Shown one piece after another: positions 2,460-20,389 of a stretch of DNA of 28,526 bases. Both the position numbers and the translations under genes were made by a program. How positions within the stretch are numbered: the stretch's first letter is position 1; each line of letters opens with the position of its first letter. Under the pieces are notes generated by a model. The model was not told where the DNA came from. It made no database searches and was given only the letters and a program-made list of their open reading frames with translations. The DNA lies in the IMG/VR virus record IMGVR_UViG_3300020042_004057, positions 1-28,526 of that record, one strand, 5' to 3'. Source of the DNA: a virus. Lineage: Duplodnaviria > Caudoviricetes.

Positions 2460-2495
2460 TAAATGCCGGTTTTTAATTGTGCAAAGGGTTTAACA

Positions 2496-3242
2496 ATGAA
2501 CATCATTAGTTTGGGTGCGGGAGTTCAGTCATCAACCATGGCGCTCATGGCTGCTCATGGCGAGATTACACCGATGCCAGAATGTGCAATCTTTGCTGAT
2601 ACTCAGGCTGAACCACACGCAACATACGATTACTTGAAATGGTTGGAAACAATTCTTCCATTTCCAATTTACAAAGTAACGGCTGGCAGTTTGCTGGATA
2701 ACATATACGCCAATAAAACATTGTCTGGACATGAGTATCAAGACGTCCCATGGAGAACCCAAGGCGGGATGGGTAAAAGACAATGCACCACTCAATACAA
2801 AATACTTCCGCTATACAGGAAGTTGAGGGAAATGGGAGCCAATCACAAAGACCCAATTGATTTCTGGATTGGGATTAGCGCAGATGAAGCAGACAGAATG
2901 AAGCCAGCAAGGGTGAAGTATGTAAAAAACCGCTGGCCGCTTTTGGAAAAAAACCTTACGCGTCTTCATTGTCTTGAGTGGCTTACTAAAAATAACTATG
3001 CTCACCCTCCGAAGTCAAGCTGCGTATTTTGTCCATACAAGGGTAACGCTGAGTGGAGGGCGCTAGATGCTGAAGATTTTGCCGTTGCCGTAAAGGTGGA
3101 TAACTTCATTAGAACTCTTTCTGTTGAGCAGTTTGTTCACAGAGATCTCAAACCATTGCAAGATGTTGACCTGAGAAGCGCCGAGCAAGCCGGCCAGATG
3201 GCTATGTTTGGCGAAGAATGCGAAGGAATGTGTGGACTATGA
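2496..3242 (+). CDS. PAPS reductase-like / adenine nucleotide alpha-hydrolase (PP-loop) family protein
   Basis: Motifs IISLGAGVQS (PP-loop variant), FADTxxE, RQCTxxYKIxP, GISxDExxR, PPKSSCVFCPY and C-terminal ECEGMCG. An alternative start exists at 2463. Confidence 0.8.
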   Translation: MNIISLGAGVQSSTMALMAAHGEITPMPECAIFADTQAEPHATYDYLKWLETILPFPIYKVTAGSLLDNIYANKTLSGHEYQDVPWRTQGGMGKRQCTTQYKILPLYRKLREMGANHKDPIDFWIGISADEADRMKPARVKYVKNRWPLLEKNLTRLHCLEWLTKNNYAHPPKSSCVFCPYKGNAEWRALDAEDFAVAVKVDNFIRTLSVEQFVHRDLKPLQDVDLRSAEQAGQMAMFGEECEGMCGL

Positions 3243-3496: not shown

Positions 3497-3845
3497 GCAC
3501 ATTGGCCTGGATCTTCCGTGGCCTCCCAGTGTTAACCACTATTGGGGGCAGTTTGGAAAACACCGGTTTATCGGCAAGAGGGGTAAGGAGTTCCGTATAA
3601 AGGTGCTTCAGGCGTGTCAGGATGGCGGTATAGAGCCTCTGGAGGGTAGGTTGGCTATGCATGTATCCCTTTTCCCTCCAGACCGCCGTAAACGCGATAT
3701 AGACAACGTCCTGAAGAGCCTCCTGGATGCCTGTGAACACGCTGGCTGTTACGCCTCAGACTCCCAGATCGACGAGCTACACGTAGTCAGGCTGGAGAAC
3801 CTCGCGGGTGGAGGCTGCTCCGTCCTTATCATGGTTAGGGACTAA
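3489..3845 (+). CDS. rusA: RusA-family Holliday junction resolvase
   Basis: LPWPPSVNHYW...PPDRRKRDIDNVLKSLLDA...DSQID contains the RusA catalytic DxDNxxKxxxD signature. Confidence 0.92.
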   Translation: MNRHIGLDLPWPPSVNHYWGQFGKHRFIGKRGKEFRIKVLQACQDGGIEPLEGRLAMHVSLFPPDRRKRDIDNVLKSLLDACEHAGCYASDSQIDELHVVRLENLAGGGCSVLIMVRD

Positions 3846-6800
3846 AGGCCGCTTATACTCCGCATCTTTTCAACCCCAGTAAGAGTTGAATTTTTGGCGC
3901 GCTGCAACAACTCTATTGTTTTTCTCTTTTCCTGCGGGGACATTGGGTTCATTTGCCCTTCTGAAATTTCTCGAATAATTTTGTTTATTCTACTCAGTTC
4001 TTTATTTGTATTGTCTACATAATCATGCATTGCAATCAATCGTTTGTTCTCTTCAACATTAGATAGAACTCCCTTTACATTTTGACGATCAATTTGTAGT
4101 TCCATAGTTTTGTATTTTTCGTCAACGCGTTCTTTAAAGTCATAGAACAAATCTTCTGGGCCACGCTGGACTGGTTTCACAAATGCCCCATAAAACGGGT
4201 TCTGTTTGTCGGTCATTGCGGGACGTTTTTCAGCCGCCTCTCCAATCAAGTTGGATGCCCATTGCGCCAAAGACCCAACACTGCCAAAAAAACCTCTGAT
4301 AATGTGATCAGCTTGTATTGGGTTCAGCGCACCTCTGGTCGCCGATGAAACATATTTGCCTAACTCAGAGGTTGTCGCGGTGTATTGTTCTGCTGCTTCA
4401 ACACCATTAAGCCCGACTGGAACAACCGGTCGCCCTGTCAGGAAACTACGATTTATTCCGATTTCGATAACCGGTCTTGCGCCAGATGGCACTGGAGTTG
4501 GGCCAAGCAACATGTCAATCGCGGCGGTTTTAAGAGCTTCTTTCAGGCGCGTTGCGTCTTTTGGCGTTGCAGTAGATTCCTCAATATACTTATCGTATAG
4601 AAACTCTGGAAGAACCTTAAAGAAAAAAGCGCCGGAGTTGTGCATTGGCAACATGATGTTGGTTCCCGGAATTATATAATTACCATACCTGGTTTTATCA
4701 TCATATTTTTTATATTCATCGTCATCGCCAATGGCGCATCTGAGCAATAGCGTAAGAATGCCCAGCGACGTTCCTGTGATAGCCATTTGCGCAAATGCGG
4801 CTTTTCTAGACTTACCTTTAAGTCCTCCGCCAGCTAATGTCTGAGCCATTACATCCGTTGCGTTTGCATAGGCCGAAATGAATGGAACTGTTTTTACAAG
4901 AATTTGCGCTACCTGTCCAGATCCGCGATGGTGAAAGTTAATTACGTTCGCCGCACGATAAAGAGCCAAAGCCTCATCGCCAGTTTCAGCCAGAACCCGT
5001 TTATATGTAGCTATACGCGGAGCAACATCCGATGAGTCTCCAATGTGATCTAGCGCCTTTAAAATAAATTGAAAGGCGTTTCGATTCATAATTCCAACCT
5101 GCATCTTTACTTCTTTTTCTGCCGTTCTGGATGGGATGTGATATCCGCCAATGCCCGCCAATTGTAATGTTCTAGCAACAGGCTCTATGTCGAAGTTTTG
5201 ATTTCCGGTAAGAGTAACTCCCACTTTATTTGCAACAGGCCTGACCAAAGTATAAACAAAGTTTTTATATACCCCGCCAAGCAACTTATACCAATGCTTG
5301 GTGCCAGATGCCCACGCTGCCACGGGCGCATCCATTAGTAATTGTTTAAGTTGAAATTCTGGATCTATCGTAATAAGTCTTCTTGTAAAGTTTGCAAGGT
5401 AATTAAAACCGTAAAGCATTTTTATGTCTAGGTTTTCCATCCCAAATACAGCTTCTGCAATAAGCTTGTCTTCGATTTCTACAACGATATTCCTGCCATT
5501 AGAAATATGAGTAAAGCGGCCTTTGTCCTTATCTACCTTTGGAAATACTGTGAGCTGGCCATTCAAATTGCGTGTTGCGTAACGATCAACAATATGGTTT
5601 GCGGCGTTTTTACGAAGTCCGTTCATGGTCATTCGCATAACGCTGCGAGTCATGTTGTCAACCATGTTTTGAATTTCGCGATTGGTTTTAAACTCAACAA
5701 TATCGCCTTCGTTTATTGGAACATTGATCGTTACCTCTCCGTTCGGAGCGCTTCTTACATCATTTGGATTTATTGGATTTTCATTTATTTCAACCCCAAC
5801 AACGCGGGAAGGTTGAATTTTAAAAGTCTGCTGACCTTGCTTTGCCTTGAATCTTGTGGAAACAGATGGTCGGCCAGCTTTAAACAGTTTTTCCCTGCCT
5901 ATGTTTGTCATAGACCTGGTAGTGCTTTGGAGCGCGGAACCGGCCTCGTCGGTGTCTGCCGATATAGTGCCGTCTTCCATGATTCGATACCATGGAATAT
6001 AGTCTTTTATGTTTGACAATAGTTCGTAGCGAGCCTCACTAATCAAACCAACATCTCGCCAGAACACAAGCAAGTTTTGGTTAACGGCGTTGTAATTAGT
6101 CATGATGTCGCCAAGCTCGGGATGCGCCCTTGCTCTACTCAAGAAGTCTCTTATTTCCCCGTTTGACATGCTGACCTTGCGTTCAACCAATTCAATAGCG
6201 GTCAAAGCCTTTTTTGCTTCCGAAATTTCCATCTTCAAGGCGCTGATATCATCTGGGTCAGCATTGGGATTGGACTTGAGTGTAATTAAATCAGCAGCCA
6301 GTTGATTTAACTGATCTTGCCGCGCAACCAATTCGTTCCTAATACTTAAAGAACGCTTTGCCTCCAAATACCCTTGAATTATGTCCGTGCCTAACTGATT
6401 TCCAAGCTTTTTCTTTATGAGTGATTCGGCTTTGTATACGCCGACCATTCCTTTGTCGCGTTTCTCCGCCACATAACTCAAAGAATTAGGGTCGTATTTA
6501 ATACCGCCATTTAATACCACTTGAGATGAAATGGCGGTAGCGCGAATAGCATTGTCCAACGCTATGGACGCATTTACTAAACCGTTCGCGTCCCTCATCT
6601 GGCCGTTGAATGCGCTGTATTCGGCGGCGTCTAAACCAGTGCCAAACCATACGTTTTTGTTGCGCATATATATGGTTGCTCGATCAGCCGTCGTAATGGC
6701 ATCTATAGCCAAACTCTTGGGGTCTTCAACTCCTTTTTTAAATATTTGTTTGGCTGTTGTTGTGGCGGTAAGGACGGCTTTCTTAAGAGAAGATGTGCCT

Positions 6801-9800
6801 GAAACTGGAGTATGTGCGTGACCATACCTTTCCAACAGATCCATGTCGTCTTGTAGGTTATTAAGGGCGACAAAATCTTTGTCGCCGGTAACCATATCAA
6901 CCAATTGACTGCGTGAAATCCTGTTCATTTCACCAGACATAATCTGATTAAATACTTTTTGGACTGCGTATTTGTTGTCAAAACCAAACACTGATTTCAG
7001 ACCTTCAAACATCCTTTGAACAAACAACTTGAACCGTTGCCATGCGGTTCCAAGCTGGCTTGCCATAAGCTTTTCTGCGTTAACTGCCCAGTATTCTGAT
7101 GGGTTGACGTATTGATACATCTCATAGCCAGGCAAAGCAGCCATGGCTTTTTCATGGTTAGCCAAACTAGGATTTTCTATAAAATTTAATACCGCATTAA
7201 AAAACTTTTGATGAAGCTCATCTTGGTTTTTTTCTGATGCTTTTTGTAAATCTTTCAGCCATGCGTCAAAAACAACTTGACGCTGCGCGCCAGACATCAT
7301 TTGCTCTAATGAGTGGTTAAGCTCGTGCCGTATTGATTTTGGGTCGGTTGCGCCAGTTGTAGATTTAAACAGCCTTACTATTCTGGCTAACGGAACAAAC
7401 ATTGCCGCCGCTCTATTGTTGCTATCTTTGCCGTGAGACCTAACGCTAAGCCTTATCCCGTCAAGTAGCTGTGGATACTTGTTATACGCAACTTGAGCAA
7501 CGGCAAGCACATCAGCAGATATATTGCCCGCATCGTATTCGGACAAAGCTTTTGCCAAGAATGTTTCTGGGGATGTGCTGGTGGGGGTGCTTATATCAAT
7601 TGCGGTTTTTAAGTAACTGCTTCTGCCCATCAAAGATGAGAGGCTTCTTTGGAGATCTGTGGATACCTCTCCTTCCGCAACCTTACGAACAGCGGACGCC
7701 ATCCGACGCCTAAGTCCGGCGTATTCGTTTATCTGCTCGCGCCGAATGTCGGTATTTCTTTGCGCAAGCTCTCCGGCTGAAAGGGGAGGCTGCGAGTCTA
7801 TGTTGAAAAGAAAGTCTTCTTTCTTGCCAAAGGTGACGTTCTTGCCAAGAACCATGTTACCAATTTGAAGAACTTCATCAGCCGCAATTACTGGGACTGT
7901 TGTGCGACGGTCGTAGAAGTAAGAATGACGGGTGGGATTTAAACCTATCTGCGTCCACGCCGGGTCAATTAATGCTAACTTTGCTTGCTCATAAATTTGT
8001 TCAGGAGTTGTCGAAACATAAGAACCTTCAATTGTTTGAAGGGGTTTTTTTGCCTCTCCAGCCGCTATATTAAGGGCCGCGCTTTGATTGCCAGGGCTAA
8101 ATTTAACATTGATAGCTTTAGCCGAACTACTATATCCAATTATTCTTCCAGAACCAGATTTTGTTCCTTTTTCGTGAATAGAAACAACATGTACGCCTTT
8201 GCGATTAAAAGACGGAATATCAAGCCTTAAACCAACGGCGGTTCCATTGGTAATTTTGGGGTTGACTTGTTTGCCTTGCGTTGAAGTAAGTGCATCTACC
8301 ATTTTTTCAATGGTGGCTGGAACTAATGGATCAGTAAAAATGTAAATCGGTTTGTATTTATTAACCAGACTATCAAACTGAGCGGTGGTCATGGTGCCGT
8401 CTTTGACCATCTGCGCGGCAGCAGCAAGCTCTGGAGAACGACCAGGCGGGAGCTTTTTCTTAGCCGTTGGCAGCTGATCCATTTCGTTCAAAGCCTTGGA
8501 CTCAGCTGGATTCGCGGCGGCTATCTTGTCGGTAATGTCAGACTCGTTTTTAAGGTCATACTCCTTTGGTATAAAGCTAGTCCTGCCGCCGTCCTCATCT
8601 ATTATTCCATCAAGTCCGATTGAATATAGCGCAGAAATTGCCATGCTTAATTCAACAGGGTCTACTTGGCGCTCATCATTCCTATTGGACATAACATCCA
8701 ACAATTCTTGTCCAGTAACGTCTTCGTCTACCAAATTAAGGAACATGTCTTCCCAAAGAACGGCGTCGTCTGTTGTTCCCCGAAACCCCGCCGCAAGGGC
8801 CTCACGCACATCGGCTGGCTGTTCTGACAAACGCTTGTCTCCAATTAGATTGGTTCCAGCGTCTTTTGCGCCCGCCTCTCCGGGCTTGCCTTCCTGCCTT
8901 CTTCTGCTTGGCAGCGTTACGTTGGTGCGTGGGGATCTAAGCACACCTTGTTCGGAATGCTTTGATACATTGAACGCACTTTGTGGGTTGCTGACAATGC
9001 TTGTAACAACGGTAGTTGTTGGTTGATACCCAGCAATACCCTCAAACGTCTGTTCCAGAGTCTGGCTCATTGGGGTGATGTATTGAATACCGCCATCTGC
9101 AAACTGTTTTTCTATGTGATCGTTGTAAAATTTTTCTCCGTAATTAATGCAGCCATAGGATATGAAGTTATCATCCGCAGTTGGCGTTGAGAGGCGTTTT
9201 AGCCTGTTTTCTGCCGGGTTTCCTGTATATGCAATGTGACCAACAAGAGAAGAGTTGCCAAGTTTTATAAAATCAAAAGATGTCCCAGATTTACGCCGCT
9301 CTATTTTTCCTTTAAATCTGCCGGCTGGAGTAACCTTTTCTTCTTTTGTTGTTTGCGCTACTGTCTTTTCAATTGCAGAACGCGGGATAACGTCTTTATC
9401 TTTGGCAGCGCCCAACAGAACTGGCGCGGCGGCAACAAGATTTCCCTTCGCATCAAATACATAACTAGTTGCAATTGGTTTGTCAGTTATTATGAATGGC
9501 AAGCCTTCGTTATCGTTAGTTCCGACAACATAGTGGGCAAGCCTAGCGGTGGTAACTGACGGAATTATGGCACCAAAGTTTGCCTTTGGTTTCTCTACAA
9601 TTTTTACCAGTTCTGTTGTTTGTATAGAGGGTATGTTGAATGCTTGAGATTCTGCGTTGAATGTAACCGGATTGAACGCAACACCAACAGCCAGGATAGT
9701 GGCAAGAAGTTTCTTAATAACATTGCGTATGCCTTTGGCTACAGCATTGATGCCCTTTTCAATGGCACGCTGTATATCGGCGCGTAACTTCGTGGCAAAC

Positions 9801-12800
9801 CCATCCGTGTTTTTCTTATAACCGTAATGGTCTTCAAGCTTCTCAACCTCTTTGTCGTTGAGTTTCTCGAGGGCTGCGTCTACTTTTTTGTTATCCGACT
9901 CTTCTGTTTGAGCAGTTGTTTCGGTAGGTTTAGTCGCGTCTATGGAAAAATAATCCGTGCGCCGTTCTGGAAAACGAGCGCGAGCCACATCACCAATTGC
10001 CCATAATTGCAGGCTATCTCTGTTGACAACGGGTTTTCCGTTTACAACAGGATGAGCTAATACTGAACCTTGGCGCGATGACCACACCTCGAATTCGTTA
10101 CCCTTGCCGTCTTTGAAACGATCGCCTTTTACCGGTTCTCGTTCTTCTGTCTTGACTTCATCCGTCTTTTTTTCTCCATCAAGCATATCACTCTGACGAG
10201 ACAACTCTTGCTCGGCCTTCTTCTTATCAATCTCCGCCTGCTCTGCCTTGCTTACTTCTTCAGATGGCGTCAGCGAAAAATCAGCCTTCTTGGATGCTTC
10301 GGCAATAGCCTTTTTGTCACGTTCTTTTTTTTCTTTGGCCTCAACTTCCGCTGCGGCTTTTTCTTCCGCCGCTTTAGCTTCTTTCGCTTTTCTTTCGCGT
10401 TTTCTAATCTGGGCCTCGGTTTCGCCGGTCAGTATTAGCTCTTCTGGCTTGGCTTCGCCGGTTCCACCTTTTTCATTTTTTCCAGGTATTCCTGTTGCGC
10501 TGGGTTGAGGGGTAGCCCCCTCAGCATTTGCCTGAACAGCCCCAGTCCCTTCGGTTGTTGCCACATCTTGCGCGATTGGTCTTTCATATCCATCCCTTAT
10601 TTTATTCAGAACGTCTTCTCGTGTAGCGCCTGTGCCAAACATGTCTGTAGATGGTTCAAAAGCTGTTTTGTATGCAAGATTTGCGGCATTTCGCAAAGCC
10701 ACTATAGCCGCTTTGTTACTGCGCGGGTTTGCCGCAAACAATGCAACTATAATCTGTGCATCTGGCGACATTTCTATATCAGATTGAATGGCGGCTTCTT
10801 TTAAGTTAAGACCCCTGCTCCTAGCGTTAAGTATGGCTATCGCACCATCAGTAACAATGTCTCTTATATCAAGTATTCCCGCTCCTTCAAGCCGCGACAT
10901 TTGCGGAGCCACTTGGGCCAAAGCAGATAAAAGCAATTTACCTTCGGCATTATTTGCCTGCGAGAACAAACCAATAAGTCTGTCGTTGTTATACGCCTTG
11001 GCAAATATAGCCGCTTCAAGTCTTGCGTAAGCTAGTTTGGACGGAACACCTTTTTTGTCCATTAACTCTTCTAATTCTGTTTCTGGCATTCCGCGTATGA
11101 ATTGCCTTACAGCATTAGCAGTTACATCGCCATCATCATTAAATTCTAATGCGTTTAGATCAACCCTATTGATATCGTTTTTGGCTTGTGCAACAGCACT
11201 CAAACCAAGACCTGTTCTAATGTTTGAAACGTCGCCTATGTCTGAGGTTATATCGGATTCCGACATAATCCTTACTGTCATTCGATTGGGTATTCTTGCA
11301 ACTACTTCAAGCGATACGCCGTGCATACGATCTTGAATTAATTCGCTTTTGTATTTATCGGCTGTTCCGGCTTTATACGCTTCTTGTATTCCTTCTTTTC
11401 TACCATTTCCCGCTATTGCGCGTGGTTGCTTGATACTAGAATCGTTGTAGTCTTTATTAACCGTTCCATCTATAAAGTTAGATGCCAAAATAGAATTTGC
11501 ATCTACAACTGCGTATTGAATTGGTATGCGACGCCCCGTTGCCGTAACAGCAAAATCCTTTCTTCCTAACTGTTCAATTGGAATGTTGCCACCGGCAATT
11601 ACGGGAGCGCCGTTTGCAAAATCTCTAGAAAACCCAAGACGCCCATAGTCAGGGTCTGCGGCGATCCCTTGCATCTGGTTAATAGATGCATCGCTCGACC
11701 GGTCCCTGTTTTGAAGAATCGGCGCGGGAGTTTTCTTTTCAACTACTTCGGCCACCTCTTCAGGTTTGACGCCGGCAGCGCGAAGCATGACCTCTTTGTC
11801 CCAGAACCGACCATCCTTTAGGTCAAAGGAGCCAGTGAGCGGGTTTATTTTTACAATCTTTTCTGCTATTAATTTACCGAGGGCGGCTCTTGCTTGCTCT
11901 TGGGTAAGCCCAAACTGCTCCATTACCGAAGACTCAAAGCTGTCCATGGCTGCTTTACCGCGAGCCACAAAACCTGTTACCGGAGGCTTTTCTTCAATTC
12001 TTTCGACAGTTTCGGCTTTAAATGCCTTGCGTGCGTCTTCAATTGTTAGAAGCACGATGCTGATGGTTTTTATACCGCCCTTGGTGAGAGACTCGATTCG
12101 CTGAAGTATTTCCTCGTCGGTGCGGCCTTTGGCTACTCCATTGCGTATCTCAATATCCACCATATTACGCAACAAATCCTGCTCCTCCATCGGCAGGCTC
12201 TCGTTTGGCGCATCTACTTTTGCGGGGCCGTTAATGACTAACCCGCGACCCTTTACGGTAACTTCTGCAAGAGTCTGGCGGGCAGCGGTTGTTGCGGCAG
12301 GGGTAGTTTCAATAACCGTCCGCGACCCGCTTGCGTCCGCAGGGCTTACAACACCGTTGCGCTCCATTTCTTCTATGAGGGCTATCGCCTCGTCAAAGCG
12401 TATGTTTAACTGTCGTTGCACTAAGCTCGGGGAGGCTCTATCAGTTGTGCGGACAATCTCAACGGCTTTGTTGTACAGATCATCCGGCGCGGCAGTCTTG
12501 GTTTCGTTGGATGATCCTTCTAGTGTAACACCTGTTACACTAGGGTCTTCAAGATCGTCAATAGCGGGAGCCTCAAAATCACTGGGCGCAAGTAAACCCT
12601 TGGGGACTACCCTCTGCTCCTCAGGTGCAGCTTCTCCCGCCGCAGGGACAACTTGGGCTGCTTCTGTTTTTGGCTCTGCTGCTACAACTGCTGGAGCTAT
12701 TGGTGCGGCTGTTACCCTGCCTTGTGGGGGCTGCGGACGCGCCGCAGGAGCGGCTGTAGAGAGGTATTGGGCTTGGTCTGGATTCAGTCTAGCCAATGCC

Positions 12801-14260
12801 TCGCGACGAGATCCTTCTTGCGTATAACCTTTTTCGGCAATGTCTTGCTGCAATGCTTTGCCAATTTTTTGGCTTGGAGATAGTGTTGCATCCTTGCTTA
12901 GTTCTACACCTTTAACGGCAGAACCAAGAACATTCCCAGCCAGACCCTCAAGAACGCCGGCAAAAACAGCGCCTCGGAAAGTGGGAACATCTACTAGCCC
13001 CTCCCTCTGTTGGGCAATATTAGATGCAACAGCCTCTTGAAACGCTTGCAGAAATTCTGGCGCACCCTCATAAATACCGGCCTCTGCTAATTTTTTTGTA
13101 ATGGTAACAAAATTATTTTTGGCATAATCTTTAGCTAAAATTTTTGCAGAGTCTGCTGTGGCGGATCTTGCAAGAATTTTATTTACCATTCCTTTTATAA
13201 GGACTGATTCTATGCCGGTTTTGCTAGCAAACGCCCCGAGACCGCCGCCCAAAAGTATGTTGTCAAGGTTTTTGCCATTGTATTTTTGAGCTTCTTGCGC
13301 TGTTTTATCAGCAATTTCTGGATTTACTCCAGCCTCAATAAGGGCTTTTTTTGTTTCTTCGTAGATGGTGCCTTTTATAGTTCCAGCACCCATCATTGCG
13401 CCAATTCCAACGCCAACCCCCGTAGCAACCGCAGCGGGCGCACCAAAAAAGGCTGTTGCTAATCCGGCAACCAATGCTGGCGCTGCCGTCCCAAAAGCAT
13501 TAACAAGTGTGTCTACCGGAGCTACGCCAAGCGCACGAATAGCTCCACCAATCTGCGCCTCAATACCCTTGTCTTCAACTTCTTTTTTAATGCGAGCAAT
13601 TTCTTTGGAATTGTTTTGCGATTGAGCGGACATTAACTTGCCAAGATAGTCTTCCGAACTACGCAAAACTTTAGAAGTTTCACTGTCTGCCCCAAAAAAA
13701 TCCGTTATTGAACGGACGCCACTTACGGTTCCTTTGGTAAGTTGCAAAGGAACGTCAGCAAATTGTCTGGCTACAGATTGCTCCTCTGGCACTGGCAAAA
13801 CAATTGGAGCATTGACCGAATCACCACGAATTACTTTTCCCTGTCTATCAATAATGGTATTAACAGTTGCCCGTTTTTGAGCTATAGCTAATTCACTTTC
13901 AGTTGGGGGCGGCTCAACAGGGCGCTCTACTTGCGGGGCAACGGGCACAACCCTGCGTGTTGGCACTTGAAAACGATACGGTTCACTTGCTATTGCCAGT
14001 TCTTTTTCTGTTGGTTCTTCAATGGGCTGAACTACCGCTGGCGCAACAAGCGGCGCTGGCGTAACAGGTAGCCTATTACGCATCCGCTTGCCTTGCGCCA
14101 TGATGTTACTGCTTACAGGAACAAACGGGACAGTTGCACTGGGCGGCCCCTCGGCTGCGTTTGTTGCGGGCTTCTGTGTAGCCAGCCACTGCTCTGGCGA
14201 CAATGGTGCCGAAGCTGCGGGAGCGGTCTGCTGGGTTGCCAGCCATTCTTGCGGACTCAT
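3842..14260 (-). CDS. giant polyvalent internal virion/ejection protein (~3472 aa) with C-terminal LPD38-like region
   Basis: Uninterrupted 10.4-kb ORF and last gene of the structural operon. The start is placed at 14260 (MSPQEWLA) because it forms an ATGA overlap with the upstream gene. It contains several recognisable domains, listed separately. Confidence 0.9.
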   Translation of the reverse strand: MSPQEWLATQQTAPAASAPLSPEQWLATQKPATNAAEGPPSATVPFVPVSSNIMAQGKRMRNRLPVTPAPLVAPAVVQPIEEPTEKELAIASEPYRFQVPTRRVVPVAPQVERPVEPPPTESELAIAQKRATVNTIIDRQGKVIRGDSVNAPIVLPVPEEQSVARQFADVPLQLTKGTVSGVRSITDFFGADSETSKVLRSSEDYLGKLMSAQSQNNSKEIARIKKEVEDKGIEAQIGGAIRALGVAPVDTLVNAFGTAAPALVAGLATAFFGAPAAVATGVGVGIGAMMGAGTIKGTIYEETKKALIEAGVNPEIADKTAQEAQKYNGKNLDNILLGGGLGAFASKTGIESVLIKGMVNKILARSATADSAKILAKDYAKNNFVTITKKLAEAGIYEGAPEFLQAFQEAVASNIAQQREGLVDVPTFRGAVFAGVLEGLAGNVLGSAVKGVELSKDATLSPSQKIGKALQQDIAEKGYTQEGSRREALARLNPDQAQYLSTAAPAARPQPPQGRVTAAPIAPAVVAAEPKTEAAQVVPAAGEAAPEEQRVVPKGLLAPSDFEAPAIDDLEDPSVTGVTLEGSSNETKTAAPDDLYNKAVEIVRTTDRASPSLVQRQLNIRFDEAIALIEEMERNGVVSPADASGSRTVIETTPAATTAARQTLAEVTVKGRGLVINGPAKVDAPNESLPMEEQDLLRNMVDIEIRNGVAKGRTDEEILQRIESLTKGGIKTISIVLLTIEDARKAFKAETVERIEEKPPVTGFVARGKAAMDSFESSVMEQFGLTQEQARAALGKLIAEKIVKINPLTGSFDLKDGRFWDKEVMLRAAGVKPEEVAEVVEKKTPAPILQNRDRSSDASINQMQGIAADPDYGRLGFSRDFANGAPVIAGGNIPIEQLGRKDFAVTATGRRIPIQYAVVDANSILASNFIDGTVNKDYNDSSIKQPRAIAGNGRKEGIQEAYKAGTADKYKSELIQDRMHGVSLEVVARIPNRMTVRIMSESDITSDIGDVSNIRTGLGLSAVAQAKNDINRVDLNALEFNDDGDVTANAVRQFIRGMPETELEELMDKKGVPSKLAYARLEAAIFAKAYNNDRLIGLFSQANNAEGKLLLSALAQVAPQMSRLEGAGILDIRDIVTDGAIAILNARSRGLNLKEAAIQSDIEMSPDAQIIVALFAANPRSNKAAIVALRNAANLAYKTAFEPSTDMFGTGATREDVLNKIRDGYERPIAQDVATTEGTGAVQANAEGATPQPSATGIPGKNEKGGTGEAKPEELILTGETEAQIRKRERKAKEAKAAEEKAAAEVEAKEKKERDKKAIAEASKKADFSLTPSEEVSKAEQAEIDKKKAEQELSRQSDMLDGEKKTDEVKTEEREPVKGDRFKDGKGNEFEVWSSRQGSVLAHPVVNGKPVVNRDSLQLWAIGDVARARFPERRTDYFSIDATKPTETTAQTEESDNKKVDAALEKLNDKEVEKLEDHYGYKKNTDGFATKLRADIQRAIEKGINAVAKGIRNVIKKLLATILAVGVAFNPVTFNAESQAFNIPSIQTTELVKIVEKPKANFGAIIPSVTTARLAHYVVGTNDNEGLPFIITDKPIATSYVFDAKGNLVAAAPVLLGAAKDKDVIPRSAIEKTVAQTTKEEKVTPAGRFKGKIERRKSGTSFDFIKLGNSSLVGHIAYTGNPAENRLKRLSTPTADDNFISYGCINYGEKFYNDHIEKQFADGGIQYITPMSQTLEQTFEGIAGYQPTTTVVTSIVSNPQSAFNVSKHSEQGVLRSPRTNVTLPSRRRQEGKPGEAGAKDAGTNLIGDKRLSEQPADVREALAAGFRGTTDDAVLWEDMFLNLVDEDVTGQELLDVMSNRNDERQVDPVELSMAISALYSIGLDGIIDEDGGRTSFIPKEYDLKNESDITDKIAAANPAESKALNEMDQLPTAKKKLPPGRSPELAAAAQMVKDGTMTTAQFDSLVNKYKPIYIFTDPLVPATIEKMVDALTSTQGKQVNPKITNGTAVGLRLDIPSFNRKGVHVVSIHEKGTKSGSGRIIGYSSSAKAINVKFSPGNQSAALNIAAGEAKKPLQTIEGSYVSTTPEQIYEQAKLALIDPAWTQIGLNPTRHSYFYDRRTTVPVIAADEVLQIGNMVLGKNVTFGKKEDFLFNIDSQPPLSAGELAQRNTDIRREQINEYAGLRRRMASAVRKVAEGEVSTDLQRSLSSLMGRSSYLKTAIDISTPTSTSPETFLAKALSEYDAGNISADVLAVAQVAYNKYPQLLDGIRLSVRSHGKDSNNRAAAMFVPLARIVRLFKSTTGATDPKSIRHELNHSLEQMMSGAQRQVVFDAWLKDLQKASEKNQDELHQKFFNAVLNFIENPSLANHEKAMAALPGYEMYQYVNPSEYWAVNAEKLMASQLGTAWQRFKLFVQRMFEGLKSVFGFDNKYAVQKVFNQIMSGEMNRISRSQLVDMVTGDKDFVALNNLQDDMDLLERYGHAHTPVSGTSSLKKAVLTATTTAKQIFKKGVEDPKSLAIDAITTADRATIYMRNKNVWFGTGLDAAEYSAFNGQMRDANGLVNASIALDNAIRATAISSQVVLNGGIKYDPNSLSYVAEKRDKGMVGVYKAESLIKKKLGNQLGTDIIQGYLEAKRSLSIRNELVARQDQLNQLAADLITLKSNPNADPDDISALKMEISEAKKALTAIELVERKVSMSNGEIRDFLSRARAHPELGDIMTNYNAVNQNLLVFWRDVGLISEARYELLSNIKDYIPWYRIMEDGTISADTDEAGSALQSTTRSMTNIGREKLFKAGRPSVSTRFKAKQGQQTFKIQPSRVVGVEINENPINPNDVRSAPNGEVTINVPINEGDIVEFKTNREIQNMVDNMTRSVMRMTMNGLRKNAANHIVDRYATRNLNGQLTVFPKVDKDKGRFTHISNGRNIVVEIEDKLIAEAVFGMENLDIKMLYGFNYLANFTRRLITIDPEFQLKQLLMDAPVAAWASGTKHWYKLLGGVYKNFVYTLVRPVANKVGVTLTGNQNFDIEPVARTLQLAGIGGYHIPSRTAEKEVKMQVGIMNRNAFQFILKALDHIGDSSDVAPRIATYKRVLAETGDEALALYRAANVINFHHRGSGQVAQILVKTVPFISAYANATDVMAQTLAGGGLKGKSRKAAFAQMAITGTSLGILTLLLRCAIGDDDEYKKYDDKTRYGNYIIPGTNIMLPMHNSGAFFFKVLPEFLYDKYIEESTATPKDATRLKEALKTAAIDMLLGPTPVPSGARPVIEIGINRSFLTGRPVVPVGLNGVEAAEQYTATTSELGKYVSSATRGALNPIQADHIIRGFFGSVGSLAQWASNLIGEAAEKRPAMTDKQNPFYGAFVKPVQRGPEDLFYDFKERVDEKYKTMELQIDRQNVKGVLSNVEENKRLIAMHDYVDNTNKELSRINKIIREISEGQMNPMSPQEKRKTIELLQRAKNSTLTGVEKMRSISGL
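4200..4735 (-). other. LPD38-like (large polyvalent protein-associated) domain
   Basis: DDDEYKKY...NYIIP...FKVLPE...PVIEIGINRSFLTGRPVVP...EQYTATTSELGK...NPIQADHIIRGFFGS matches the remembered LPD38 pattern. Boundaries are approximate. Confidence 0.7.
7070..7460 (-). other. zincin-like metallopeptidase domain
   Basis: SIRHELNHSL (HExxH, 7313-7327) with downstream NPSEYWAVNAE supplying a candidate third Glu ligand. Confidence 0.6.
9070..9545 (-). other. L,D-transpeptidase (YkuD-like) domain
   Basis: DNEGLPFIITDK...VFDAKGNLVAAAPVLLG...TPAGRF...GH...NRLKRLSTPTADDNFISYGCIN. Catalytic His and Cys candidates are present. Confidence 0.8.
10900..11722 (-). other. DdrB-like ParB superfamily domain
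   Basis: LQNRDRS...QMQGIAADPDYGRL...GAPVI...QYAVVDA...AIAGNGR...DIGDVSN...LSAVAQAKND. The GNGR motif is typical of this ParB-like family. Confidence 0.75.
12311..12487 (-). other. FtsK gamma-like winged-helix domain
   Basis: DDLYNKAVEIVRTTDRASPSLVQRQLNIRFDEAIALIEEMERNGVVSPADASGSRTVI aligns without gaps to the FtsK gamma pattern DxLyxxAVxxVxxxxxASxSxvQRxlxIGYNRAAxliexMExxGiVSxxxxxGxRxVl. Confidence 0.85.
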
Positions 14261-16893
14261 TGCGGCGATCTCACAAATTTCTTGTAGTCTCTCCACTGAG
14301 CATCGGTGAAGTCTGCAGGTCGAGCGTAAGTTTTATTACCAACTGTCACGCTGTCTGGTGCTGCTGGCTTTGGGGTGGCGACTGGGGCGGCAACCCGAGG
14401 AAGTTGTCCGGGTCTTGTTGGAGACCTAATATTCCTTAGAGCTTCTTGAAATATACTTTCTCGCAAATCTCTTTCAATGGTTGTTGGTTTGCCAGCTCTT
14501 GCATTTTTAGCATCCTGTTCTTGTGCTTGAAGTATTGCAATAGTTCCTTGTGTAGATTTTAATTTTTGATCCGCTGAAGCCTGTGCGGCCCTATTATCTA
14601 CACCCTCTTGTCCAACCGCTGCTGTATTGGCTTGTATATCTTGACCGCGAGCCTGAACTCCTACACCAGCATAACGCGGATCGTATGCTCCTTTTAGTTT
14701 TAGAAATGCATCCCTAGCCTCCGTTGAAAGAGCCGTAACACTCTTTTTGCTTCCGTTTTCTATTGCCGATGCAACGTAGTCACGAACGTATGCGGCCATA
14801 TCATTTGGCGGCTTGGCTGCAAGGGCGGCTTCTTTTGTTGCCACCAGATCAGCCGATTTTGCGGTAAGTTTTGCTAGCTCTAAGTCAATAGCTTTAATGC
14901 GATCTTCTTTCTTCTCAAACGAAGCTTGGGCAATTTTTGCAATGCCAGTAGCATCGTTGTAGCGCATATTTTCCAACTCAGCCAATTCTTTATCGCGAGT
15001 ATTAGTAAGGGAGCGGATTTCTTTCTGTTCTGACATAAACCCAGGAAATGCTTGTGCAGCGCCAACAGACAGAGGTTGTGTAATTGAACTAAGAATACCC
15101 GATTGTGGACGACCGTATTTAGAAGCTTCTGATGCCATCCCAAGACCGGTGCTAATAATGAAGTTGTTTAACGCCTCCTTCTTGCGGGCGGCCTCAGTTA
15201 GCTGAAGATCCTCGAGTTGTTTTTGACGTTTGTCACCATAGTTACCGGTGATGCCGGCAGCTCTTAATGCTTGTTGCTGCGCCTCTCTGGCGGATGCTAC
15301 CTCACCAGCCATTGTGGGTTGCGTGTATTGAGCGCGTAAACGCTCTTGTTCTTGTCTTGCCATTTTAAGCAACCCCTGAGATGACATATCAAGCGGTTCA
15401 CTTGTATCTGCTTCTGATTTTATAATTCCCAACCCAGTGGGACTTGAAACAAAATCACTATCTCCATTTGCGGCTGGAACAACGCCCGCACTTTGGAACG
15501 CAATAATCCCACCGCCATCATAATTCTCTGGGGCAAAGTTATTAATTGGCAAAGAAGTCAGCCCACCGTTGGGTTGCTCTTGCGGCATTTGGGGGGCGTC
15601 TTGCTGGACTTCCTGCGAAGGCATAGCCTGCTGGATTCCCTGCGGGGGCATGGCTTGTTGTGGCTGTTGTCCCTGCGGCATCACTTGTGGCATTTGCGGC
15701 GGCGCATCTTGCGGTTGTTGACTGCGCGACAGAATCTCTCTAGCCATGTCTTCAGCCACAGTAGTCATGCTTGGCCTTGCTATAGGCTGATGCATTTTGT
15801 TAATAGCCGGCAGCATAAACTTGGCTAAAGCCATAGCCTGATTGATTGGCGGGAGTTTTGACTTAGCCGCTATTTCTGTTTCGGGATCTGTTAATAAAGA
15901 AGTAATCCCGCCGCTTTCAAAATGACGAACCGAGCCGCCATGTTTATAGCCCTGGATGATGCCGCCCTCTTTCTTAAACGCATTGTTTAACCCATATCCA
16001 GCCAAACCAAGGCCGGCAATTTGTCCAAACATACTCGGGGCTACTTGGGACTCTTGTTTCGTGGTAACTCCACCTGTCGGCGTCCCGCGTATGATGTCTG
16101 ACATAAATCCAAGTTGTTGATACGGGTAATTCTGCCGGTTCAAAAACTCTTGATATTGATTAGACAGTCCTTGTTGATTGAAAGCCTGTTGCTGTGCGCC
16201 GGCTTGTAATTGTGCGGCATTAATACCAGACTGCTGTTGATATTGGTTCTGACCCAACTGACCAAGTGTGCTGGCCCCTTGCAACGCTTGGTTGTAGCCT
16301 TGCAGCCCTAAACTAGAACCAAACTGTTGGGCTTGCTGGGCGTTCTGAAATGCGTTCTGACTACCGGTGGCTTGGATACCGGCAAGCTGGTTCTGGAGGT
16401 TACGTTGCCCTTCACCTTCTACGATGGCCTGACGGCTCCCACCAAACGCACCTTTGTTAGATGCTGCCGCCCCCATACCAGGAAGCTGGCGTCCGTAGTC
16501 CATCACGGCTTGTTGTTTCTGGTAGTCAGTGACGTTCTGTTGATAGGGCGACATGAATGCTTGTATGGCACCGGGGTCGGTTGCCATCCGGTTGTAGTTC
16601 TGACCAGCACCCAAACTACCCAGCCCTGCCGCACCCGCAAGTCCTGTTGCTTGTTGAGTCTGCGGAGATACTTGCATGCCACCGATGGTGTTAAACGCCT
16701 GCTGCTGCATCGGCGCGAAGTCAGCTACGCGCTGCCCCCCATACTGCTGATAGGGGTTCTGGTTAATATCCGTCAGCGCACCAGCTTGACCAAAAAGCTT
16801 TTCAACATACGGTTGTGCATATGCTGGGAGATTTGTATTAGTGACAGTCGAACTTGTCGGCTGTTGCTGCTGTTGTCCGCCGCCTTTACCCAT
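14257..16893 (-). CDS. internal virion / DNA-ejection-like protein (Q/G/A-rich, 878 aa)
   Basis: AGGAG SD. The N-terminal third is Q/A/G-rich (GAFGGSR motif, NYPYQQLGFMSDIIRG), followed by a P/Q/M linker and a coiled-coil C-terminus. It lies directly upstream of the giant protein. Confidence 0.75.
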   Translation of the reverse strand: MGKGGGQQQQQPTSSTVTNTNLPAYAQPYVEKLFGQAGALTDINQNPYQQYGGQRVADFAPMQQQAFNTIGGMQVSPQTQQATGLAGAAGLGSLGAGQNYNRMATDPGAIQAFMSPYQQNVTDYQKQQAVMDYGRQLPGMGAAASNKGAFGGSRQAIVEGEGQRNLQNQLAGIQATGSQNAFQNAQQAQQFGSSLGLQGYNQALQGASTLGQLGQNQYQQQSGINAAQLQAGAQQQAFNQQGLSNQYQEFLNRQNYPYQQLGFMSDIIRGTPTGGVTTKQESQVAPSMFGQIAGLGLAGYGLNNAFKKEGGIIQGYKHGGSVRHFESGGITSLLTDPETEIAAKSKLPPINQAMALAKFMLPAINKMHQPIARPSMTTVAEDMAREILSRSQQPQDAPPQMPQVMPQGQQPQQAMPPQGIQQAMPSQEVQQDAPQMPQEQPNGGLTSLPINNFAPENYDGGGIIAFQSAGVVPAANGDSDFVSSPTGLGIIKSEADTSEPLDMSSQGLLKMARQEQERLRAQYTQPTMAGEVASAREAQQQALRAAGITGNYGDKRQKQLEDLQLTEAARKKEALNNFIISTGLGMASEASKYGRPQSGILSSITQPLSVGAAQAFPGFMSEQKEIRSLTNTRDKELAELENMRYNDATGIAKIAQASFEKKEDRIKAIDLELAKLTAKSADLVATKEAALAAKPPNDMAAYVRDYVASAIENGSKKSVTALSTEARDAFLKLKGAYDPRYAGVGVQARGQDIQANTAAVGQEGVDNRAAQASADQKLKSTQGTIAILQAQEQDAKNARAGKPTTIERDLRESIFQEALRNIRSPTRPGQLPRVAAPVATPKPAAPDSVTVGNKTYARPADFTDAQWRDYKKFVRSPQ

Positions 16894-16894
16894 A

Positions 16895-17329
16895 CTATTC
16901 TCCTAATCCCGCTTCGGCAGCGGGAAGTTCAAATGTCTGCCACAACGGTTTATGTCCGTCAGTTTTAAATATTTTTGCCCAACCCAAACGGGCTGTTGCT
17001 TCAATTCCGTCACACTTACTATCAAAAGCCCATGCCTGTAACATCCTTAGCATTGGGGTTTTCCATTCATCTAGATCAACCCCGCCACAAAATGTCATAC
17101 ATAGAAACTTTCTTCTGGGGTAGTTTATATAGTTAGTTACAACTGCACCTTTGATATTAGCCCCATCAAATGCAATCCAAAGCAAATGCTCGTAATCAGT
17201 TATAGCTGTCAGTATGTCGTCAACTTGGTATCTGCCGTGCGTATAGTCCGCTGCACCTTCCAGATACTTTTCAACTTGAGGCCATATTTGGTTAACCATC
17301 GTAGGCGGCACCAAACTAATTTGTATCAT
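16895..17329 (-). CDS. putative GNAT-fold virion morphogenesis protein
   Basis: W..V..YL..A...GRY...LWIAF...GAVVT...YPRRK.L...FCGG..L.EW...WA....CDGIE...R.GW matches a phage family found among internal-virion genes. The fold assignment is an inference. Confidence 0.6.
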   Translation of the reverse strand: MIQISLVPPTMVNQIWPQVEKYLEGAADYTHGRYQVDDILTAITDYEHLLWIAFDGANIKGAVVTNYINYPRRKFLCMTFCGGVDLDEWKTPMLRMLQAWAFDSKCDGIEATARLGWAKIFKTDGHKPLWQTFELPAAEAGLGE

Positions 17330-18993
17330 GCGGGCATGAAGTTAGCGGGGTTGATCTGCCTACCCTGCTTCTTGGTGCCTGTTCTTGCGTGACGAATCTT
17401 GTCCATCATGGCATAAAGCCTCTTGGCTCCAGCATCCGTCGAACCGTTGCCCAAGTGCGAAACTACGTCAGCAGGTATAACAAACTCACCCTGCGCCAGT
17501 GCCGCCCGTTGGGGTCTGGCACCCTTGATTACCGCAGGGATGGAGTCCGACATGCCGTCTCCCGGCCCTTGGAGCAGTTTACCACCCGCAGCGTATTCGT
17601 TGGGCAGAGAGGCGATACCACCAGCAGCCATTTTTGGAGCGTAGGATTGACCGGTAGGGTCAAAGGAATACTGCGCGGGGGTGCTAGAAACGGCACTCAT
17701 TCCTTGACCGGAATACGTTTGATTTGCTGGATTGTAAGAGTAATTATCCGGCCCTCTTAACTTCGTTACCATTTCTGGGTTCTGGGACAATAATTGGTCA
17801 AACACACTGGGGCCGCCGGAATTGATGTCTCCGCTCATGCCACCTTTTAAAAAATCATACCAATGATGTTCTCCTGCGCTACTAGGGGGCGGGCCTCCCG
17901 CCGTAGCCGTAGCTGAAGTTGAACCGCCGATACCAAACCCCATAATCCCGCCCTGCGCCGCTTGCATGGTCGGTTGATCCATATAGGACGTATTGGAAGC
18001 GTTAGCCCGGTCATAAAGCTCTGTAGTGGCAGCGGCTTGGACGATAGAATCCGTCCCACTTTGTGAAAGCTTGGACAGCATAGTCGGAGACATCTTGTCT
18101 AGCTGCGCTTTTAATCCGGCGTATTTATCGACGTTCTTATACATTTTTTTGCCGGACTCGCCAATCGGCCCCGCGTTAGAGCCGTAGATGTTAGTGCGAA
18201 TATTCTCGCTTTGCGGGATGTAGACTCCATCAGCAAAGCTTGGAACTTCACCCCCCTCTGCCCCTTTATAGGTATACGACATAGGCGCAGCAGCAATATA
18301 TCTCTGAGTTTTTGGGTCGAAAGTATACTGAGGTGAATAACCCGTTTTGTCTTGAAGCCCTGCAACGGGTGGAGGTTGCTTAAGCATACTTGCAATCCCA
18401 GTAACCGCACCGGCCACCGTAGATGGGTTCTGCACCATGTAGTTAGCGGGGTTCTTCATAAAAGTTGCTTTAGGCGGAGTTAGCCCAGATGTTTGTTGAT
18501 AGAGCTTATCGTAGTAATCCGGCTTGGTGGCAAGAGGGGAATCTCCGTAAGAGGCGTTATTTATATCTGCAATATTTGAAGAATTAACAGGAAGCGGAAG
18601 AGGTTCGGCAGGGGTAAGTATAGGGTTCTCAAACGTGCCAAACCGGTCAGTTATACTCTTACTGCCCGCATCTATTGCTTCTTGGCTTGGCATAGTCACT
18701 GCATTTTCTGCAAAATTCTTAGTAGCCGCATCTAGCCCAGGCTGCGCCGCTTCTGCCGTCAGTGTTTCTAATGTTTTACCACCCATAGCACTACCAAGAC
18801 CACTCACTATCCCAGCGCCCGCTCCACCTATCAGCAGGTTCTGACCGAAGTTATCAAATACATTATTTCCTTTGATAACATTACCAATTGCACCGGTAGT
18901 AGCGCCCATCATTGCCCCACCAAGCATCGTTGTACCGATACCTATCGCACCTGTAGTTCCCAACATCGTTCCAGCCAAGGCAATGAAAGACAT
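17326..18993 (-). CDS. internal virion protein (555 aa) with Gly-rich hydrophobic N-terminus and C-terminal GPGDGxSDSIPA domain
   Basis: The N-terminus is a GxxxG-rich hydrophobic segment. The C-terminus reads YAAGGKLLQGPGDGMSDSIPA...LAQGEFVIPADVVSHLGNGSTDAGAKRLY. Confidence 0.75.
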   Translation of the reverse strand: MSFIALAGTMLGTTGAIGIGTTMLGGAMMGATTGAIGNVIKGNNVFDNFGQNLLIGGAGAGIVSGLGSAMGGKTLETLTAEAAQPGLDAATKNFAENAVTMPSQEAIDAGSKSITDRFGTFENPILTPAEPLPLPVNSSNIADINNASYGDSPLATKPDYYDKLYQQTSGLTPPKATFMKNPANYMVQNPSTVAGAVTGIASMLKQPPPVAGLQDKTGYSPQYTFDPKTQRYIAAAPMSYTYKGAEGGEVPSFADGVYIPQSENIRTNIYGSNAGPIGESGKKMYKNVDKYAGLKAQLDKMSPTMLSKLSQSGTDSIVQAAATTELYDRANASNTSYMDQPTMQAAQGGIMGFGIGGSTSATATAGGPPPSSAGEHHWYDFLKGGMSGDINSGGPSVFDQLLSQNPEMVTKLRGPDNYSYNPANQTYSGQGMSAVSSTPAQYSFDPTGQSYAPKMAAGGIASLPNEYAAGGKLLQGPGDGMSDSIPAVIKGARPQRAALAQGEFVIPADVVSHLGNGSTDAGAKRLYAMMDKIRHARTGTKKQGRQINPANFMPA

Positions 18994-20204: not shown

Positions 20205-20389
20205 CAGTCATCCCCCATCCATTGCAAGGTAGTTAACCCATTGATTGCTTGTATAATTTCAGTATTGTTGCTGCTTTGCTGATTAAAGTACAACCGTAGC
20301 GCATTCAAGAGTTGATCTTGATACCGCTGGTTATATTCCTGCGGCCCTACTGGAAGGTTTGGAGCTACGGCGGGGAATATGTTTTCCAC
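20204..20389 (-). CDS. small tail-associated protein
   Basis: APNLPVGPQEYNQRYQDQLLNALRLYFNQ, coupled on both sides (TAGTG, TGATG). Confidence 0.7.
   Translation of the reverse strand: MENIFPAVAPNLPVGPQEYNQRYQDQLLNALRLYFNQQSSNNTEIIQAINGLTTLQWMGDD

Follow-up and report, generated by a model that had tools for sequence, protein, structure and literature searches.

The 28,526-base window analysed here is the entire linear virus record IMGVR_UViG_3300020042_004057 (Duplodnaviria; Caudoviricetes), with an estimated completeness of 44%. On its minus strand, 3842–14260 form a single stop-free open reading frame (ORF) whose translation gives 3,472 amino acids (aa), in agreement with the ~3,470-aa protein of a preliminary description made from the sequence alone. 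This giant is a phage-type polyvalent protein, in which several disparate biochemical domains stand in one chain. Near its middle lies a ~300-aa module, consisting of a phage-specific leader followed by a cysteine-transpeptidase domain of the YkuD fold, and we find that this leader-plus-transpeptidase module recurs, mid-protein, in well over a hundred giant proteins. The giant of the window is a real new form of polyvalent ejection protein; its novelty lies in the module together with bacterial relatives that are linked to a C-terminal tag. The earlier suggestion of a polyvalent protein that is probably ejected, and in which an enzyme fold of periplasmic type is combined with cytoplasmic modules, is supported.

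The transpeptidase module and its spread

An L,D-transpeptidase (LDT) had been proposed for this part of the giant. Neither Pfam nor NCBIfam gave a YkuD match, whether the whole protein or 23 overlapping 300-aa windows were scanned, and comparison of the domain with the PDB by sequence and profile returned nothing useful. A search with aa 1511–1760, however, retrieved, among 741 candidates, 46 proteins of 177–310 aa at 32–42% identity, four of which are named L,D-transpeptidase or L,D-TPase by their source. In an alignment of the query with 32 of these 46 relatives, His1675 and Cys1704 are invariant in all 33 rows, 13 of which give weak Pfam YkuD matches; one phage relative, P0177, clears the Pfam YkuD cut-off (25.7 versus 23.4). 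Foldseek with a predicted model of the domain (predicted local distance difference test score, 81) returned L,D-transpeptidases, and with VIA-align the top 20 of 48,161 chains all had the L,D-transpeptidase fold (next unrelated chain, Z 4.6), the best being Csd6 (Z 12.2; root-mean-square deviation (rmsd) 2.6 over 129 aligned positions) and Ldtfm (Z 12.0; rmsd 2.7 over 123). Identity to stand-alone bacterial proteins and fold thus bear out the proposed L,D-transpeptidase, which the family profiles miss, and the domain is a divergent subfamily of the YkuD fold rather than a canonical PF03734 member. It has the fold (Z 12.2 to 6.9) and the His/Cys pair in common with the YkuD enzymes Ldtfm (6fj1), Csd6 (4xzz), Pgp2 (6xj7), DpaA (8ikr) and Tlde1a (7uma), and differs from them in a longer His–Ser spacing, in the sequence SYGC and in its mid-protein position behind a phage-specific leader.

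A profile built from 21 phage copies and searched against 1.84 billion representatives gave 277 clusters at E 1e-30, the best 150 of which were counted; these representatives come without genomic context, and their phage origin is inferred from size and domains. Among the best 150, 141 are at least 1,000 aa long and 145 include the leader. The His and Cys are intact in 149 of the 149 proteins that span both sites, and in proteins longer than 2,000 aa the module ends at 48–55% of the length (interquartile range). The module is also found in eleven other proteins of 1,909–6,076 aa, and two scans of viral sequences yielded 42 distinct contigs, in 40 of which the domain lies within an ORF of 1,393–4,424 aa. 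The two best matches in BFVD come from uncultured phages, and one of them bears the name of an LPD-domain protein. Partner domains in the module-bearing giants include LPD38, LPD39, a pyrophosphatase, an ADP-ribosyltransferase, GNAT, a methylase and an SNF2 helicase. Single-sequence pattern scans of viral contigs with the transpeptidase and with the C-terminus were empty, and the same kind of scan with the FtsK/ParB region gave one locus, L026. One module-bearing record (L007) is classed as a provirus, the flanks of which could reveal a host.

The module and the remainder of the protein have different nearest relatives. Over 1,601 aligned positions of the C-terminal backbone, the window giant is 47% identical to L026 (L026:7826-18610), the closest backbone relative found, which lacks the FtsK-gamma domain. 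Backbone identity to the giants P0134 and P0164 is 49–50%, yet their modules are just 28–29% identical to ours, and the module most like ours (64% identical; core 74%) is that of P0048, an LPD39 giant otherwise dissimilar. This disagreement between module and backbone similarity indicates that the transpeptidase module is swapped between unrelated backbones. In L026, a second HExxH region (~aa 1733–1993) occupies the transpeptidase slot, and a winged helix-turn-helix (wHTH)-like module stands after ParB, whereas in the window giant it stands before ParB.

The preliminary description took several modules to be host-derived. As regards the immediate source of the transpeptidase this does not hold: its core is 74% identical to that of an unrelated phage giant, P0048, and at most 42% identical to any of 80 bacterial copies, and on these identities we rejected a recent capture from the host by this phage. 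For an unrooted tree, 267 cores were thinned by identity to 73 from phages and 23 from bacteria. The tree places the bacterial rows, which are a biased sample (drawn from the best 80 of 596 loci chosen by one pattern), on one side of a branch (Shimodaira–Hasegawa-like approximate likelihood ratio test support, 100). The window protein groups with P0048, P0050 and P0051, in a clade whose connection to the bacterial branch is supported at only 82. The phage side of the tree is the more diverse one, and conceivably the bacterial subfamily came from it. The preliminary description knew of no earlier characterisation of this combination of domains. The exact architecture of the window giant was seen once in a comparison set of 189 giants (188 in some counts; the set includes near-duplicates), and FtsK-gamma and transpeptidase occur together in four; the string is, however, a mosaic and the transpeptidase module in it is common. 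The particular string of domains matters less than the module.

With the polyvalent proteins of Iyer 2017 (phi24B gp47, phiARM81mr p69 and the DarB-like protein of PEp14), the giant has in common a late gene, LPD38, a zincin and DdrB-ParB, p69 in particular combining ddrB-ParB with LPD38 as ours does. The wall enzymes described there are lysozyme, SpoIID, DD-peptidase and zeta kinase, in place of which our giant has the YkuD fold (PMC5512222); neither 'transpeptidase' nor 'YkuD' appears anywhere in the main text of that paper, whose architectures are listed in its supplement. We found no description of an L,D-transpeptidase in phage ejection proteins in the literature covered, outside which most subscription papers lie, and in a 2025 LDT review the word 'phage' appears twice, both times on a wall-binding domain. 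The virion wall enzymes so far found in ejection or polyvalent proteins are mostly glycosidases or D,D-peptidases.

Bacterial relatives and a C-terminal tag

The nearest bacterial relatives form a stand-alone subfamily (ISYGCIN[VL]P type), mostly from Pseudomonadota, for which NCBIfam has no model. Results for it refer to the best 80 of 596 loci, the 596 coming from 41 of 64 parts of GTDB. These proteins have an extended loop and motif in common with the window domain; they differ in having an N-terminal export-type segment, no leader (0/80) and neighbours that end in a tag, which the phages lack. A gene with [KR][QPA][DA]R[NHF]-stop as its ending is adjacent in 56 of the 80 loci and is present somewhere within the locus in 61; the corresponding count in shuffled controls was 0–3 of 80, and it was 0 for five FtsK loci, each taken from a different one of these genomes. 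The tagged proteins are short, low-complexity exported and lipoprotein-like proteins (with a signal-like start, by our own rule, in 37 of 62 tagged ORFs), and some are filamentous-haemagglutinin-type adhesins (5/5 scanned). Examples among the bacterial loci (L027–L106) are L050:164-2701, L040, L085 and L106. A 17-locus cluster holds TpsA-like adhesin genes, often preceded by a gene that we take to be TpsB-like.

This arrangement resembles wall tethering of the Lpp/OutB type (PMC12729407). Since 26 of the 56 tags are RADRN, and so contain no Lys, the C-terminus of the tagged protein may be the acyl donor, in a sortase-like manner. The tag provides a candidate for the substrate and may mark a protein-anchoring pathway that is new. 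No account of tag-directed anchoring turned up in the literature, although no search aimed at the tag was made. Eleven of the 80 loci contain, close to the first enzyme, a paralogue of it with an SLGC motif (for example, L027:2033-2665(-) and L041:3723-4352(+)).

On the phage side, the tag occurs 0 times in the window, itself a 44% complete record, and 0 times in 751 kb of the 42 viral loci. Ten phage genomes that are 89–100% complete gave 0 true matches: three degenerate DNA matches, none spelling the tag, were found there, versus six control matches. Since the phages lack the tag, a substrate of the tag type would be the host's.

Possible roles at entry

We propose that the giant would be packaged in the phage head and be ejected together with the DNA in the manner of gp16-type proteins, and that its cysteine enzyme would then act a single time, while in the periplasm, on peptides of the wall or on host protein tethers. 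If the chemistry follows that of YkuD enzymes, an acyl-enzyme on Cys1704 would arise at an L,D-type bond, with release to water or to an amine. The giant's own metallopeptidase would process the polyprotein, and the ParB and winged-helix cargo thus freed would act in the cytoplasm. Such a role would parallel wall-opening by the T7 gp16 transglycosylase, with a different chemistry. By analogy with phi24B gp47 and P1 DdrB, a virion location for the giant is very probable: its gene lies in a late-gene context beside virion structural genes, and proteomics has found phi24B gp47, an LPD38 giant, in virions, where it was proposed to be an ejection protein (bioRxiv 10.64898/2026.04.10.717836). Action of the module on the host envelope at entry is probable, and, given activity, we moderately favour cutting or exchange of bonds over stable tethering. 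Toward processing of the polyprotein by itself we lean only slightly. Taken as a whole, an ejected and processed polyvalent protein whose YkuD-fold module cuts or exchanges host wall or tether bonds is a reading on which we are evenly balanced.

Several lines of background fit this proposal. YkuD enzymes include carboxypeptidases, endopeptidases and enzymes that anchor or detach proteins (2025 LDT review), and Tlde1a is a YkuD-type antibacterial effector that is delivered (PMC9638812). Like T7 gp16, the giant is the product of the last and largest gene of an ejection cluster and joins a wall-acting domain to cytoplasmic functions, and the wall domain of gp16-type proteins is known to be swappable (PMC8954989). 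Unlike T7 gp16, which is a protein of 1,318 aa with an N-terminal transglycosylase, the giant has a cysteine enzyme in the middle of its 3,472 aa; a PHROG scan of it gave no gp16 family match, and Pfam gave no SLT or lysozyme match. Indeed, no lysozyme or SLT match was obtained with Pfam in 44 module-bearing giants or in the upstream ejection genes of the window, and therefore no other wall enzyme is recognised in the ejection cluster.

A number of observations weigh against the proposal. Trimming of peptide stems by itself would open no hole. The module is absent from cultured phages (0 of 50,697 GenBank phage records), L026 lacks it, and 5 of 5 cultured LPD38 giants are without a Pfam wall enzyme; the last two findings indicate that the function is either dispensable or supplied elsewhere. 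PEp14 has an SLT domain, but it is N-terminal (aa 57–159) rather than in the mid-protein slot. Hydrolase and transferase fold matches lie within 1 Z unit of each other, so that the fold leaves the type of reaction undecided, and the gene neighbours of the bacterial relatives suggest protein anchoring, not wall cutting. The motif, H-x25-SYGC, departs from the canonical HX14-17(S/T)HGC given for YkuD in PMC9638812. Finally, the virion polymerase of N4 has a similar metallopeptidase and yet is packaged uncut (PMC5512222). Set beside the intact module in at least 141 clusters, its absence from GenBank phages also points to an entry chemistry in uncultured phages that is unstudied, and the domain, at ~200 aa and modelled with confidence, is directly testable.

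The first alternative to be weighed is that the module covalently ties the ejected conduit, in the form of the giant itself or of a neighbouring ejection protein, to peptidoglycan, as happens to Lpp. Anchoring to the wall by LDTs is established (PMC12729407), and the nearest bacterial subfamily adjoins the tagged exported linkers, lipoproteins and adhesins described above. Moreover, D1593, K1594, D1623, T1644–G1647, R1686 and L1690 of the core are kept in both the phage and the bacterial group, and the module has a fixed mid-protein position behind a basic-then-apolar helix. However, no C-terminal tag was found in the 42 phage loci, the window or the ten near-complete genomes, internal tag-like words are not enriched (9 versus 10–18 in shuffled sequences), and several bacterial near-invariants are changed in the window protein (W to Y1577, D to L1667, R to F1699). 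We consider such anchoring unlikely. A broader and rather doubtful idea is that a tag-directed, sortase-like protein-to-wall system of Gram-negatives has a large phage counterpart, in which a mobile module ejected by aquatic podoviruses either clips the host's tagged tethers or welds the DNA conduit to the wall.

A second alternative concerns topology. The preliminary description noted a signal-like helix ahead of the transpeptidase and suggested that the uncut protein might span the envelope. The helix exists and is weakly membrane-like, but it is not a free signal peptide: it is the last helix of a predicted four-helix leader, which 185 of 188 phage giants have and none of the 80 bacterial copies has, and for which a fold search gave weak helical matches only (best Z 6.0). 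A leftover host signal peptide was rejected on this distribution and because an AxA comes after the helix in just 23 of 147 cases. On a crude membrane-insertion scale the helix has a median of 4.4; the values for comparison are 2.0 (bacterial N-termini) and 8.7 (background). The stretch before the helix is more basic than that after it in 149 of 184 proteins, and its scores fall well short of those of bacterial signal peptides (under a common cut, 9 of 184 versus 38 of 77). The helix may dip into the membrane; it is not a convincing signal anchor. Apolar stretches were also found, on crude scales, at aa 249–295 and 3154–3178.

If the uncut protein did cross the inner membrane at this helix, the DNA modules would lie inside, with FtsK-gamma and ParB engaging the host segregation machinery, and the transpeptidase outside. 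The basic residues before the helix, its apolar character relative to background and the position of FtsK-gamma and ParB N-terminal of it in the window protein are consistent with such an arrangement, and T7 gp16 has been modelled across periplasm, membrane and cytoplasm (PMC8954989). Against it, the domains on the C-terminal side of the module among the 189 giants include ADP-ribosyltransferase (13), methylase or SNF2 helicase (3) and JAB (2), and those on its N-terminal side include GNAT (9) and pyrophosphatase (3). Since cytoplasmic enzymes thus stand on both sides, one crossing at the helix cannot sort cytoplasmic from periplasmic parts. Together with the weakness of the helix, and with the loss of key FtsK-gamma residues described below, this makes single-pass spanning distinctly improbable; a multi-pass hairpin form is a possible variant. 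The flanking cytoplasmic enzymes favour processing over single-pass sorting. Of 188 giants, 110 have an HExxH after the module and 4 have one before it, and processing by polyvalent metallopeptidases has been proposed in PMC5512222, which also gives uncut counter-examples.

Processing might instead be the work of the cysteine enzyme, cleaving or ligating the polyprotein itself and leaving the wall untouched. The central position of the module between blocks of cargo, the apparent recognition of proteins by the bacterial relatives and the 78 of 188 module-bearing giants with no HExxH after the module would fit this idea, which we nevertheless judge even less probable than spanning, given that most giants (the 110 above) already have a metallopeptidase, that the fold matches are all envelope enzymes and that no conserved cleavage motif lies beside the module. 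Least probable of all is a post-entry role, in which the enzyme would cross-link or exchange D-amino acids and so close the wall again or shut out competing phages: these are core YkuD reactions (2025 LDT review) and the module is optional, as L026 indicates, but few copies of the enzyme would be expected per virion, and in 40 of 42 loci it is fused into an ejection giant, not encoded as an exported early protein.

The chromosome-segregation reading in the preliminary description is likewise not supported. The FtsK gamma-like domain itself is borne out (Pfam FtsK_gamma, 62 bits versus a cut-off of 30.6): it matches the gamma domain of P. aeruginosa at E 2e-11, with aa 616–633 as the recognition region, and agrees by profile and sequence with gamma domains of known structure (2ve8, 2j5p, 5dcf). 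Nevertheless, no FtsK/SpoIIIE motor was matched in the whole protein or the 23 windows, the NCBIfam FtsK model aligning at its positions 1291–1353 alone. Residues 1289–1297 of E. coli FtsK are enough for XerD activation (PMC5052618), and R1300, E1303 and E1306 serve recognition of FtsK-orienting polar sequences (KOPS; PMC2680272). The giant keeps the equivalents of R1289, E1303 and E1306, but G-Y-N-R is replaced by R-F-D-E and R1300 by Ala, changes that fall in the XerD-activating peptide and the KOPS helix. F-[DK]-E-A is found in 4 of 4 giant gamma copies (P0001, P0204, P0182 and P0188, all of which carry the transpeptidase), and GYN and the R1300 equivalent are lost in all four, whereas GYN is kept in 5 of 5 bacterial FtsK proteins and GYNRA in 3 of 4 gamma domains from other phage genes. 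Judged from these residues, a KOPS- or XerD-directed role is unlikely, and altered DNA binding or a decoy role is possible. The gamma domain of P0204 (aa 644–708), a 3,891-aa giant otherwise dissimilar and with a transpeptidase only 35% identical to ours, is 94% identical to that encoded at 12284–12478 of the window, which suggests a very recent exchange.

Similarly, the DdrB-like ParB stands (Pfam ddrB-ParB, 50 bits versus a cut-off of 27.6), and at E values up to 1 only ddrB-ParB (PF18763) matches, with no ParB_N match. PMC5512222 describes DdrB-ParB as a family of phage late genes with a predicted role in sensing or degrading nucleotides or DNA, names it and LPD38 as phage-only marker domains and lists the FtsK wHTH as infrequent polyvalent cargo in 2017. 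Both are thus already-described phage cargo rather than segregation modules, and the altered FtsK-gamma is the smaller curiosity.

Domain map and gene cluster

Coordinates of the features discussed are collected in Table 1.

Table 1 Features of the giant protein and of neighbouring virion genes in the window
Feature	Coordinates	Strand	Basis
Polyvalent protein, 3,472 aa; last and largest gene of virion/ejection cluster	3842–14260	-	ORF, context, domain matches
Pro/Ala-rich N-terminal leader with short repeats, aa 2–26	14171–14257	-	Sequence
Hydrophobic Gly/Ala-rich segment, aa 249–295, in N-terminal region common to other giants	13376–13516	-	Sequence, comparison
FtsK-gamma-like winged helix without motor, aa 593–650; recognition-helix GYNRA replaced by RFDEA	12311–12484	-	Pfam
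Small mobile module, aa 686–736; also in 4 other transpeptidase-bearing giants	12053–12205	-	Sequence comparison
Second small mobile module, aa 767–835, possibly winged helix	11756–11962	-	Sequence comparison
DdrB-like ParB, aa 847–997 (GNGR 951–954), with C-terminal extension to ~aa 1230	10571–11722	-	Pfam
Charged linker rich in Lys/Glu/Ala	10151–10393	-	Composition
Putative small beta domain, aa 1372–1442	9935–10147	-	Sequence
Phage-specific four-helix leader, aa 1451–1529, ending in amphipathic/hydrophobic helix and F-N-P	9674–9910	-	Prediction, alignment
YkuD-fold cysteine transpeptidase/peptidase domain, aa 1558–1742	9035–9589	-	Identity, fold model
Catalytic-type pair His1675 (nucleotides 9236–9238), Cys1704 (nucleotides 9149–9151)	within 9035–9589	-	Alignment
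Unnamed conserved domain, aa 1939–2157	7790–8446	-	Sequence comparison
Zincin-like metallopeptidase, HELNH 2312–2316, Glu2389	6926–7528	-	Motif, local alignment
Helical backbone with beta-rich insert	4724–6913	-	Comparison with L026, P0134, P0164
LPD38, aa 3180–3356; hydrophobic helix aa 3154–3178 just before	4193–4723	-	Pfam
878-aa gene directly upstream of giant	14257–16893	-	PHROG 4287 'DNA ejection protein', E 2.9e-21
Virion structural gene	20389–22821	-	Best GenBank matches annotated stabilization/needle-head protein (DSL-LC04, Pag-Yong1)

Most of the remaining domain assignments of the preliminary description were reproduced. The N-terminal short repeats are two copies of SP[QE][EQ]WL, the hydrophobic segment placed at ~13380–13500 is Gly/Ala-rich and may well insert into a membrane, and the charged linker is reflected in a charged fraction of 49% over aa 1301–1400. 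LPD38 scores 72 bits in Pfam against a cut-off of 27. The HExxH peptidase has HELNH followed downstream by SE, H2312/E2313/H2316 and E2389 being conserved in every one of the 30 full-length sequences aligned locally, as in the definition of the polyvalent-protein metallopeptidase (HExxH plus a downstream Glu) in section 8 of PMC5512222; it is related to the DarB-like giant of Erwinia phage PEp14. The second wHTH stood in part: the mobile module is real, being ~60% identical to one at another position in L026 and present also in P0134, but its similarity to GntR is sub-threshold (E 0.04), and it is only possibly a winged helix. The putative small beta domain has no relative among the 189 giants.

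The unnamed domain of ~220 aa, with RLDIP and RxxYFYD motifs, is present in five other giants. Three GenBank phages, namely Roseobacter phages CRP-9 and CRP-207 and a Manatee Spring podovirus, have it too, in a large gene that closely follows the portal gene. It gave no PDB match and no Atlas hit, and its Pfam match to PF25735 is sub-threshold (3 of 5 members, best 9e-5); it is likely a polyvalent domain not yet listed. The beta-rich insert of the backbone (~5666–5878(-)) is found in L026, P0134 and P0164 and is apparently shorter or absent in other relatives.

The giant gene is the last of a minus-strand cluster that contains tail-fibre-like genes, a holin, an M15 peptidase, the virion structural gene and the gene matching PHROG 4287, and it converges tail to tail with a plus-strand RusA gene. 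We favour the ATG as its start over a GTG at 14296, which the ORF-listing program picked, because the ATG overlaps the stop of the upstream gene. Homologs of this 878-aa upstream gene precede the giant in 18 of 42 related viral loci. The structural gene also matches an HTVC023P homolog that has no annotation; its resemblance to stabilization and needle-head proteins suggests that the phage of the record is probably short-tailed (podovirus-type).

Three further genes were noted. The low-complexity 555-aa gene at 17326–18993(-), whose conserved region is 39–70% identical to ORFs in many related loci, has no Pfam or PHROG name and is probably a further ejection protein. The 144-aa gene at 16895–17329(-), within the ejection cluster, has homologs in 3 of 42 loci; Pfam and PHROG scans gave no family match, and we presume it to be GNAT-like. 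The gene at 2463–3242(+) resembles 3'-phosphoadenosine 5'-phosphosulfate (PAPS) reductases (PHROG 424, E 5e-41) and possibly has a role in DNA modification.

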